This document shows, piece by piece, positions 38,188 through 41,427 of a DNA stretch of 64,000 bases; the stretch's first letter is position 1; the number at the start of each line of letters is the position of its first letter. Origin of the DNA: Malacoraja senta (lineage: Eukaryota); NCBI GenBank assembly GCA_038087875.1, contig CM075988.1, positions 8,124,001-8,188,000 of the forward strand. The letters run 5' to 3'. Made by a program: the position numbers and the translations under genes. Below the pieces are notes generated by a model, which was given only the letters and a program-made list of their open reading frames with translations, searched no databases and was not told the origin of the DNA.

Positions 38188-38763
38188 CTGAAAGAGGAGT
38201 GGAGAGCACCAACACAGAATAAGTCATACAAGCCCCACAATTATATTCAGACAGCTCAACTGACGAATGTGAATGAATGAATGAATACGTTTATCGGCCA
38301 CGTATTCACATACAAGGAATTTGCCTTGGTGCTCCATCCACAAGTGACAACATGACATACAGTGACAGTTAGGAATGACATATAAAACATTAAACATTAA
38401 TAATAAAATATTATTGATTAAATAATGTACTGCCTTTATAAACAGCTCCTGTCATATCCTTCTGCGTGGGCCTGCTGGATCTCCCAGTTGCTAACCATTT
38501 AAACTAAATTTTCCATTCCCTTTCTGTCCTGAGCCCCTTCCATTGCTAGAGTGGGGTCACACGCAATCTGGAGGAACAGCACCTCATATTCCGCTTGCAT
38601 AGTTTACAGCGCAATGCCATGAACACTAAATTCTTCAATTTTAGGTAACACCCCTATTCCCCGCCCCCTCCCCTCCCCAACTCTTCCCACTGTATCACCT
38701 GGGTTCACACACATTTCTCTCACTATCCCTCTCCCCTTCTTCTCTGTATCCTTCCACCTATAT

Positions 38764-40695
38764 TAGGTATGTTACAATACTTACCTTCAGCGGTGCTGCA
38801 GTTCTGCCACTGGCCGTGTGCGCGAATTTGGCGCCTTTGAGGGGGGGGGGGGGGGCGGGATTAAAATGCCGTTTTCTCCTGCCTGTTCGAGATATCTTTT
38901 CTCGGGCTGCTAGCTGATGCTGAAAAATCGTTTCCGACTTCCGTTCTCGGAAGTTAAAAAAAAAATCGCGGGACAATTTAATCGCTGGAGTAAAATAAAA
39001 AAGTGACTTCTAACGCCGTCAACGGGATGGATCTCACGTAGGGGACAAAACATAAGGTAAGTCATTTATTTTACATATAAACTTGCTTCTTAGGATGACT
39101 TTAATCAAAATTTCTTTGGCGAAAATGTGATTTTGACCCCATATGAACCGGCAGTGTTTTTCCTGCCAATATGGGGTTCAAATTCACTGCAACCGCAATG
39201 TTCCAATCGATCGCGTTCCACAAAAACCCATTCGCAAGATGTTTTAAATGGCCATTAATTTACGGGAATTAAACATTAAATTCCTTCCATTTGGCCTATA
39301 AATTCATGACAATTAGATTTAAAAATCATGTTATTTTGTGAATTCTTGTGTGAATGTTATTTGGACACTTAGGCTATTTAAAAATGTTAATATTTTCTTA
39401 AGAAATGGATAGATGTTTAGATCTAGTAATTGAATTTTGTAATTAGCTACAATTAGGTAACTAACTAATTATATGCTTTAATTTCAGGTCATCCAAGTAA
39501 GATTGTTTCATATTTGTTTCAGAATGCTTCAATCTATAATAACTGAACATTTCTTTCAGTTCTCTTAATTTTTAAGAAAGTTATGGGCTTTTGACTGTCC
39601 TCGATCACAGCTTATGTGTTAAGTCAATGGAAAAGCAATAGGGAACAAGATGCTAATTTCCGAGTATGAAAATGGCCATAACTATTTTAATACTGAAGAT
39701 ATGAAAGTGAATTAGTAGCAATGTTACAAAATTTTGAGATTTAAAAAATCAAGTCTGCAATCTATCCCATCAGATAAAGCATAAAAAGAAGTTTAATTTG
39801 ACACTCAAAAGCTGTGATCAATTTTCAGTTATTATAGATTGAAGCATTCTGAAACAAATATGAAACAATCTTACTTGGATGACCTGAAATTAAAGCATAT
39901 AATTAGTTAGTTACCTAATTGTAGCTAATTACAAAATGCAATTACTAGATCTAAACAGCTATCCATTTCTTAAGAAAATGTTAACATTCTTAAATAGCCT
40001 AATTGTCCAAATAACATTCACACAAGAATTCACAATATAACATGATTTATAATTCTCATTGAATTTATAGGCCAAATGGAAGGAATTTAGTGTTTAATTC
40101 CCGTAAATAAATGCCCATTTTAATCATCTTTCGAGTGGGATTTTGTGGAACGGGATCGATTGGAACGTTGCGGTTTGCGGTGAATTTAAACCCCATATCG
40201 GCAGGAAAAACACTGCCGGTTCGTATGGGGCCTAAATCACCTTTTCGCAACGTTAAATTTGGATTAAAGTAATCCTAAGAAGTACGTTTACATGTAAAAT
40301 ATACGGCTTACCTTTATCTGTCCCGTACGGGAGATCCGTCCCGTTGTCGTCGTTGACGGCGTTAGAAGTCAATTTTTATTTTACTCCAGCAATTAAATTA
40401 TCTAGCGATGTTTTAAAAAAACTTGATAGAACGCGTCGGATCGATTATTCTTCAGCAGCTAAACTGCCTGAGAAAATCGACTTCGACAGGCAGGAGAAAA
40501 CGGCATTTTAATCCCGCCCCCCTCTCAAAGGCGCCAAAGTCGCGCCACGGCCAGTGGCAGAACTGCAGCGCCGCTGAAGATACGTTTTGTAACATACCTA
40601 GAATTAGGTGTCAAATTAAACTTCTTTTTATGCTTTATCTGATGGATAAATTGCAGACTTGATTTATAAAATCTCAAAATTTTGTAACATTGCTA
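38764..40695 (+). mobile_element. Non-autonomous DNA transposon (outer copy), 7-bp TSD
   Basis: Termini TAGGTATGTTACAA ... TTGTAACATTGCTA; CCTATAT duplicated at 38757-63 and 40696-702; host Penelope-like sequence resumes across the site. Confidence 0.88.
39716..40600 (-). mobile_element. Second copy of the same transposon family nested in opposite orientation, 7-bp TSD
   Basis: TAGCAATGTTACAA ... TTGTAACATACCTA; GAATTAG duplicated at 39709-15 and 40601-07; interior is the reverse complement of the outer copy with internal deletions. Confidence 0.88.
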
Positions 40696-41427
40696 CCTAT
40701 ATCCCTTTCTCTGGCTTCACATTTCACCCCTCTCTCCTTATCTTAAACTCTTTAGTGTCCTTTTCATCTCTAGCCTTTGTCCACCCATCTGCCAATTACC
40801 CCCCCCCCCCTTGCCTGCATCTACCTATGTCTTGCCAGACTTTGTCCAGCCCTCACCTAGACAATAGACAATAGGTGCAGCACCGCCATTCAATGTGATC
40901 ATGGCTGATCATCCCCAATCAGTACCCCGTTCCTGCCTTCTCCCCATATCCCCTGACTCCGCTATCTTTAAGAGCGCTATCTAGCTCTCTCATCATCAGC
41001 CTTCCTCTCTCCCAGCCCCTCCCCGTCAGTTTGCCCCTCCCTTACAGCCCCTCAGACCCCCTCCGTCCCCCCAGTCCGTTCCCCCTCCCTCTTCCAGCTG
41101 CCTCGCCCTACTGCAATCAGTCTGAAGAAGGATCCTGACCAGAAACGTCACCTATCGAGATCCTCCAGAGATGCTGACTGACCCACTGAGTTACTCCAGC
41201 ACTTTGTGTTTGTTTTGGTAAACCAGCATCTGCAGTTCCTTATGCCTCCTGGTCATATTGTGGTGGTAGATTTCCATAAGAGTAACGACAGGAGACACCC
41301 CTAAGACACCACCTCCTCTCCCACCTTCCTCCCCTCCATTGATAAATTGGGGTCACAGGTTACATCACTGAGGATGTGTTCAGGAGCATCAATAGATGTA
41401 TTTTTTATCAATGGGGGGGGGGGGGGG

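Follow-up and report, generated by a model that had tools for sequence, protein, structure and literature searches.

A non-autonomous transposon with 7-bp target site duplications nested in inverted orientation within a copy of its own family

The nested locus and its host repeat

In the window, the 64,000-nucleotide stretch of DNA analysed here, two copies of one terminal inverted repeat (TIR) transposon lie one inside the other and in opposite orientation, within the 3' region of a decayed retroelement (Table 1). The outer copy (38764-40695) is flanked by the target site duplication (TSD) CCTATAT and comes to 1040 bp once the inner copy and one TSD are removed, and the inner copy of 885 bp is flanked by GAATTAG. 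Both copies have TIRs reading TAGGTATGTTACAA on the left and, as reverse complement, TAGCAATGTTACAA on the right, which match at 12 of 14 positions. This arrangement had been described in a sequence-only reading of the window, and its coordinates, TSDs and TIRs are exactly as first noted there. Within the window, the chance of an exact 7-mer pair is P=9.1e-5, so that two of them located at TIR ends greatly exceed what chance would produce. When the whole window was scanned for 14-bp inverted ends (at least 12 matches) accompanied by 7-9-bp direct repeats, six matches were obtained, namely the outer and inner elements, three palindromic points in the arms of these two, and an unrelated pair spanning 167 bp. 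The 64-kb window contains no additional copy of the element.

Table 1. Features of the nested locus, in window coordinates
Feature	Position	Strand	Basis or remark
Decayed C-terminal end of the GIY-YIG endonuclease ORF of the host retroelement (putative)	38519..38648	+	frame 38550-38648 reads ..LEEQHLIFRL..
Pyrimidine-rich 3' region of host repeat, left of insertion	38649..38763	+	paralogue 14344-14493
Outer TSD, left copy CCTATAT	38757..38763	.	single in paralogous empty sites
Outer element, left part (element positions 1-952)	38764..39715	+	first 500 bp CpG-rich (27 CpG, o/e 1.14), remainder AT-rich
Outer left TIR TAGGTATGTTACAA	38764..38777	+	sequence
Splice-donor-like AAG/GTAAGT after the CpG-rich part	39054..39062	+	sequence; AAG/GTAAG kept in inner copy
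51-bp segment of outer copy and family, deleted in inner copy	39552..39602	+	alignment
About 98-bp segment (edges approximate), deleted in inner copy	39614..39711	+	alignment
Inner TSD, left copy GAATTAG, the family's own sequence	39709..39715	.	joint 39708->40601
Inner element, 885 bp, inverted, distinct subfamily	39716..40600	-	38 CpG in first 500 bp, o/e 1.54
Inner right TIR	39716..39729	-	unlike flanks pile up before 39716
Inner left TIR	40587..40600	-	sequence
Inner TSD, right copy GAATTAG	40601..40607	.	sequence, joint 39708->40601
Outer element, right part (element positions 953-1040), TIR at 40682-40695	40608..40695	+	alignment
Outer TSD, right copy CCTATAT	40696..40702	.	sequence, paralogous empty sites
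Host repeat 3' region, continued	40703..40846	+	matches window 14344-14493, 4304-4399, 53774-53873

Between the outer and inner copies, identity is 86% in the first 788 bp and rises to 95.5% in the last 88 bp, and by segment the identities are 95, 84, 90, 96 and 97%. The suggestion that the two copies bear different internal deletions proved half right, as the inner copy is without 51 bp and about 98 bp that the outer copy and the family carry, the latter segment overlapping part of the inner copy's target site, but the outer copy has no gap larger than 9 bp relative to the inner. As a by-product of the nesting, the locus contains inverted arms of about 790 bp (39310-40061, 38764-40600), of which the inner 242 bp are 96% complementary, with a spacer of 268 bp. 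These arms are a possible site of cruciform or hairpin instability; a DNA fold of 39300-40700, computed without a shuffle control, restates the long inverted arms.

The retroelement fragment to the left of the insertion is 79% identical over 107 bp to window positions 55865-55759. There, a longer paralogous frame (55538-56173) has a YIGET..R...EH signature and reaches a score of 0.95 against GIY-YIG clusters, with Pfam shares of 51% and 22%, and the GIY-YIG domain suggests that the host is a Penelope-like element. More decayed 3' ends of putative GIY-YIG (Penelope-like) elements were observed at 55538-56173 (minus strand), 4082-4188, 49987-50115, 47950-48060, 2880-2930 and 9382-9421. The flanking repeats presumably resemble those of skates and rays, that is, they appear cartilaginous-fish-like.

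Several other repeats were observed in the window. A 196-aa frame at 62724-63314 (plus strand) contains a reverse-transcriptase fragment (PF00078, E=4.1e-08) and is probably a LINE remnant. Copies of a short interspersed repeat lie at 37672-37860, where two of them are in inverted arrangement, and at 41117-41216, 35385-35480 and 44545-44630, and an AT-rich tandem array with periods of 14 and 76 follows a G run at 41404-41651. Two GC- and CpG-rich, repeat-like stretches (42908-43661 and 22545-22689), noted together with a 73-bp tandem pair, contain overlapping open frames without a Pfam match and are possibly parts of other mobile elements. At 90-256, a 167-bp stretch found in the TIR/TSD scan has 12/14 inverted ends and is flanked by AACATGTT; it may have arisen by chance or represent a small element whose TSD is 8 bp.

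Empty sites and the length of the target duplication

The 1,081 bases at 39560-40640 were compared with four public sequencing runs, and contigs were obtained from three runs of related organisms (X1, X2 and X15), which may be of other species than the window's; a raw-read run (X21) gave 0 reads. In 3/3 runs with coverage, a joint from 39708 to 40601 skips 892 (=885+7) bases, with 7 letters fitting either side in X1 and 5 in X2 and X15, and loose ends behind 39715 go on as the outer element's GTGTCAAATT in 56, 48 and 38 contigs (X1, X2 and X15, the order kept below). The skipped bases and these continuations together indicate that GAATTAG is single in uninterrupted family copies. Among the records, none extended over the nested junction itself. 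The segments deleted in the inner copy are likewise present in the family, where the 51-bp segment is entered by loose ends before 39820 in 68, 38 and 36 contigs and the segment of about 98 bp by loose ends behind 39804 in 47, 61 and 53 contigs. For the outer copy, two paralogues of the host repeat (14344-14493 and 4304-4399) cross the junction with the motif present once, the former aligning over the reconstructed empty site at 70% identity; these outer empty sites demonstrate the duplication but do not separate 7 from 8 bp.

The length of the duplication bears on whether the element is an ordinary hAT transposon with 8-bp TSDs that has been misread by assigning a terminal A to the element, a reading that we consider very improbable. 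The outer site does permit it, since formally it is 7 bp but becomes 8 bp (ACCTATAT/ACCTATAT) when the element's terminal A is assigned to the flank, an alternative that had already been pointed out from the sequence and does exist. The inner site does not: a perfect 7-bp reading and no perfect 8-bp one was found in 25 end shifts tried, and under either one-base shift only 7/8 positions agree. Moreover, 59, 98 and 93 contigs depart at 39716 into flanks that are unlike one another (agreement 0.37-0.38, median about 250 bases), and loose ends pile up at 39716 with none at 39717, as seen among 18 of the 1,230 loose-end rows. The terminal base is therefore part of the element, which has symmetric ends, TAG..CTA. 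Although it is drawn from two sites only, the best reading is that the TSD is 7 bp and not 8 bp long, and the 7-bp TSDs proposed from the sequence are borne out by empty sites that back both duplications and by flanks that break at the terminal TAG.

Two observations concern the base adjoining the element. In element orientation, both TSDs start with C (CCTATAT and CTAATTC), and in X1 there are 72 loose ends at 39715, one base further out, against 59 at the terminus 39716, an excess that is absent among the rows listed for X2 and X15. Together these give a hint of a preference for C adjoining the right end.

Abundance, subfamilies and the order of insertion

The family is very abundant in the three related organisms. 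Contigs aligned on the 1,081 bases numbered 28,544 in X1, 21,782 in X2 and 15,311 in X15, and dispersed high copy number with unlike flanks was observed in 3/4 runs; in each of 20 listed runs from 10 studies, 36-48% of the inner copy's words were present. In X1, the summed depth over the element's 3' half is about 0.6-4.6 million, compared with 31-111 for single contigs listed, and drops to about 10,000 or below within a portion of the inner copy's 5' half, where contig depth is not to be read as copy number and is inflated by the overlap of short contigs. From these data we infer a family of thousands of copies or more, comprising several subfamilies that differ mostly in the 5' half.

The two nested copies represent two such subfamilies. 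Variants were assessed on 31 of 40 rows (172 in all), omitting three rows of the outer copy and six with an X1 share below 0.9. At 16 sites more than 90% of the X1 depth is unlike the inner copy, and the outer copy has the family letter at 13 of them; of the other three, two fall in gaps and one is common to outer and inner. The outer copy is thus of the common type and the inner of a derived type, which has more CpG (38 in its first 500 bp, compared with 27 in the outer copy). This agrees with the order of insertion, outer before inner, and counts against conversion between the arms.

The same data bear on whether the palindrome arose by inversion, by gene conversion between its arms or by mis-assembly instead of by a second insertion, which we regard as extremely unlikely. 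Such an origin would fit the arms being more alike near the centre (96%) than distally (84-90%). The gradient, however, is family-wide: in X1 the summed depth is about 10^6 over the 3' half and 10^4 or lower across a portion of the 5' half. Private variants are not common to the two copies (13/16 sites against, one shared), and gene conversion, considered as the source of the identity gradient, was rejected on these two grounds. The inner copy is in addition bounded by two copies of a 7-bp motif that occurs once in the family, and the arms are not identical, unlike those of a fold-back artefact. The TSDs, TIRs and empty sites support what the sequence-only reading had proposed, a non-autonomous TIR transposon inserted twice, independently, with inverted nesting.

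No transposase ORF had been seen in either copy, which agrees with the frame analysis: the longest stop-free frame touching the element is 90 aa, 0/6 frames overlapping it match Pfam, and among all 17 frames checked against Pfam the sole match is one distant reverse-transcriptase fragment. The locus thus combines the features by which a non-autonomous TIR DNA transposon is recognised, namely TIRs, a TSD that is single at the empty site (2/2), high copy number and lack of a transposase. Further afield, exact-motif scans of metagenome contigs and prokaryote genomes gave no match to the element. A degenerate TIR scan of viral contigs gave at least 119 matches, with flanks fetched for 80 of them; as 0/119 had a partner TIR and none had BLAST similarity, these matches were treated as chance and not as relatives.

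Affinity, proposed mechanism and self-nesting

The ends of the element read TAGGTAT and TAGCAAT, with TA..TA as the outermost bases, and a 7-bp TSD falls in the range of the hAT superfamily (usually 8 bp, with 5, 6, 7 and 9 bp known). On its TAG termini and on the known 5-9-bp range of hAT TSDs, the family is probably hAT-like, an assignment that we favour by a modest degree; the defining character of the superfamily would be a transposase with a BED finger and a DDE core (PF05699) in an autonomous partner. The length of 7 bp had been taken as a pointer to an unclassified family, which is not supported, since 7-bp TSDs are known in hAT, Galileo/1360, Dada and Kyakuja and are uncommon but recurrent among known transposons.

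Among hAT elements, the Repbase paper illustrates retrieval with families that bear the annotation '7-bp TSD', and it assigns non-autonomous elements to their groups when the TSD length is equal and 10/11 terminal positions match (PMC4455052). These entries are like the present family in their 7-bp TSD, short TIRs and non-autonomous derivatives classified by their ends, the comparison covering TSD and description. In hATm, 27 of 28 listed termini begin TAG, 24 of them TAGGGT, and the TSD is 8-9 bp (PMC6004678). The TAG...CTA termini are alike and the left end has TAGG in common, but hATm ends are mostly TAGGGTG, as opposed to TAGGTAT/TAGCAAT here; hATm was rejected on fewer than 10 of 11 terminal matches to any of the 28 listed termini and on the 7 bp at the unambiguous inner site. 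The groups hAT5, hAT6 and the fungal hAT7 have been named (PMC12730594), and indicate that the TSD length of hAT has shifted more than once. Of these, hAT7 of rust fungi is likewise a hAT with a 7-bp TSD; it is fungal and belongs to the Ac/Tam3 clade, and was rejected on terminal similarity, as the one consensus compared starts CAACGG.

That the family belongs to an undescribed lineage massively expanded in this animal group, be it a new superfamily or a new branch of hAT with an independent shift to 7 bp, we consider unlikely. It would be consistent with the termini falling short of a 10/11 match to hATm and to the one hAT7 consensus, and with the finding of no description of the family in the literature, a weak point since families are mostly described in Repbase and Dfam, outside that search. 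Against it stand the Repbase entries for 7-bp hAT elements and a Dfam class, hATw. We take hATw to be an animal hAT group with 7-bp TSDs. It comprises 9 families in Dfam (Dfam Table S1) and is also mentioned in PMC12905397 and PMC13465017. A terminus or TSD of hATw was not found in supplementary material of PMC6004678, PMC8721813, PMC7805219 and PMC12730594, or in 12/33 files of PMC10294476. The hAT7 paper of 2025, in the passages considered, mentions no animal group with 7-bp TSDs described before it, and hATw is missing from its supplement (PMC12730594), which counts somewhat against a 7-bp TSD in hATw. It is doubtful that the family represents an unnamed TAG-ended lineage with a 7-bp stagger, independent of hAT7 and P/Galileo, that has grown to several subfamilies and to a copy number of thousands or more in a vertebrate group, in which a CpG-intact young subfamily would point to a recently active transposase.

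A second possibility, a non-autonomous element related to Galileo or 1360 of the P superfamily, whose transposases carry a THAP domain and a P-type catalytic domain, appears improbable. P-type termini are CA..TG, beginning with CA in the consensus, which differs from the ends found here. The TSD itself would fit, as Galileo and 1360 make 7-bp TSDs (PMC4168063, PMC3698922) and the superfamily is given as 7-8 bp (PMC5199201). In contrast, the TIRs here are 14 bp and begin TAG, whereas P-type TIRs are reported as 27-32 bp, or 3 bp with sub-TIRs, and those of Galileo are long and of the fold-back kind (PMC4168063, PMC3698922). Neither TSD here is similar to GTANTAC, the target consensus of Galileo. 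Dada has a similar TSD of 6-7 bp but is without TIRs and targets small RNA genes (PMC3706591); it was rejected on the TIRs present here and on the lack of any Rfam or tRNA match in the window. Kyakuja is alike in its 7-bp TSD and differs in being without TIRs and ending CA..TG (PMC12730594), and Academ was rejected on its TSD of 3-4 bp (AcademX) or 9-10 bp (AcademH) (PMC10045372), as opposed to 7 bp.

In the established mechanism, the TIRs are recognised by a DDE transposase, which cuts the element out and inserts it at staggered positions of the target, where gap repair creates the TSD, the length of which reflects transposase-DNA geometry (PMC10045372). In the system considered here, a high-copy non-autonomous cut-and-paste family of about 1 kb, with 14-bp imperfect TIRs beginning TAG, would be moved in trans by a transposase encoded elsewhere, which would attack its target with a 7-bp stagger so that gap repair leaves a 7-bp TSD; 2/2 sites suggest that this stagger is usual for the family. 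The earlier of the two insertions was that of a copy of the common subfamily, into the 3' region of a dead, putatively Penelope-like retroelement. The later one placed a copy of the derived, internally deleted subfamily, presumably by chance, in the AT-rich 3' part of the first copy and in the opposite orientation, and left an imperfect palindrome. The family may descend from a master element and retain, in the 5' half, that element's CpG-rich promoter and its first splice donor, the motif at 39054-39062 possibly being a relic of that promoter and first exon. We hold this account as a whole, a non-autonomous TIR family of about 1 kb with a 7-bp stagger, two insertions and nesting by chance, to be likely.

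The locus provides a clean example of a nested insertion and draws attention to an abundant family of repeats for which curation may be needed. Should the partner transposase prove to be a hAT, it would be a vertebrate case of a stagger shifted to 7 instead of 8 bp, which would be useful for asking which residues set TSD length, and if a young subfamily still has an intact master, this would be a candidate vertebrate transposon tool.

With regard to the nesting, it had been suggested that the element might prefer its own sequence as a target, which was not upheld, as the family is abundant enough for chance nesting and the flanks of other copies are diverse. Under random insertion of 1-kb copies, with assumed copy numbers and an assumed genome of 2-4 Gb, 10,000 copies would give 12-25 self-nested events and 50,000 copies 312-625, while 1,000 copies would give fewer than one. 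Given the high abundance of the family, nesting by chance is therefore to be expected and is the most likely explanation, and one nested case selected in the course of a large scan can be explained without any preference.

That the transposase prefers its own element, making self-nesting systematic, seems quite improbable to us. It would account for the one nested case, and it has a precedent in the rice MITEs Castaway and Gaijin (PMC5172404), so that, were it real, it would still be of a kind already known. The self-nested MITE multimers of rice and maize are similar in that a non-autonomous element has entered its own family by independent events, but there the preference was shown statistically for some families (PMC5172404), and here there is one case with no sign of preference: the right-terminus flanks are unlike one another in 59-98 contigs per run, no terminus-to-interior joint is dominant among the joints listed (15 of 77), and chance suffices at high copy number. 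A few low-depth joints do bring element ends together with element sequence close by (40604->39716, separated by 27 letters, and 39717->39685), and these may reflect clustering. The first of them, seen in one contig of X1, links one element end to the other over about 31 bases, and represents either two close tandem copies or a circle junction.
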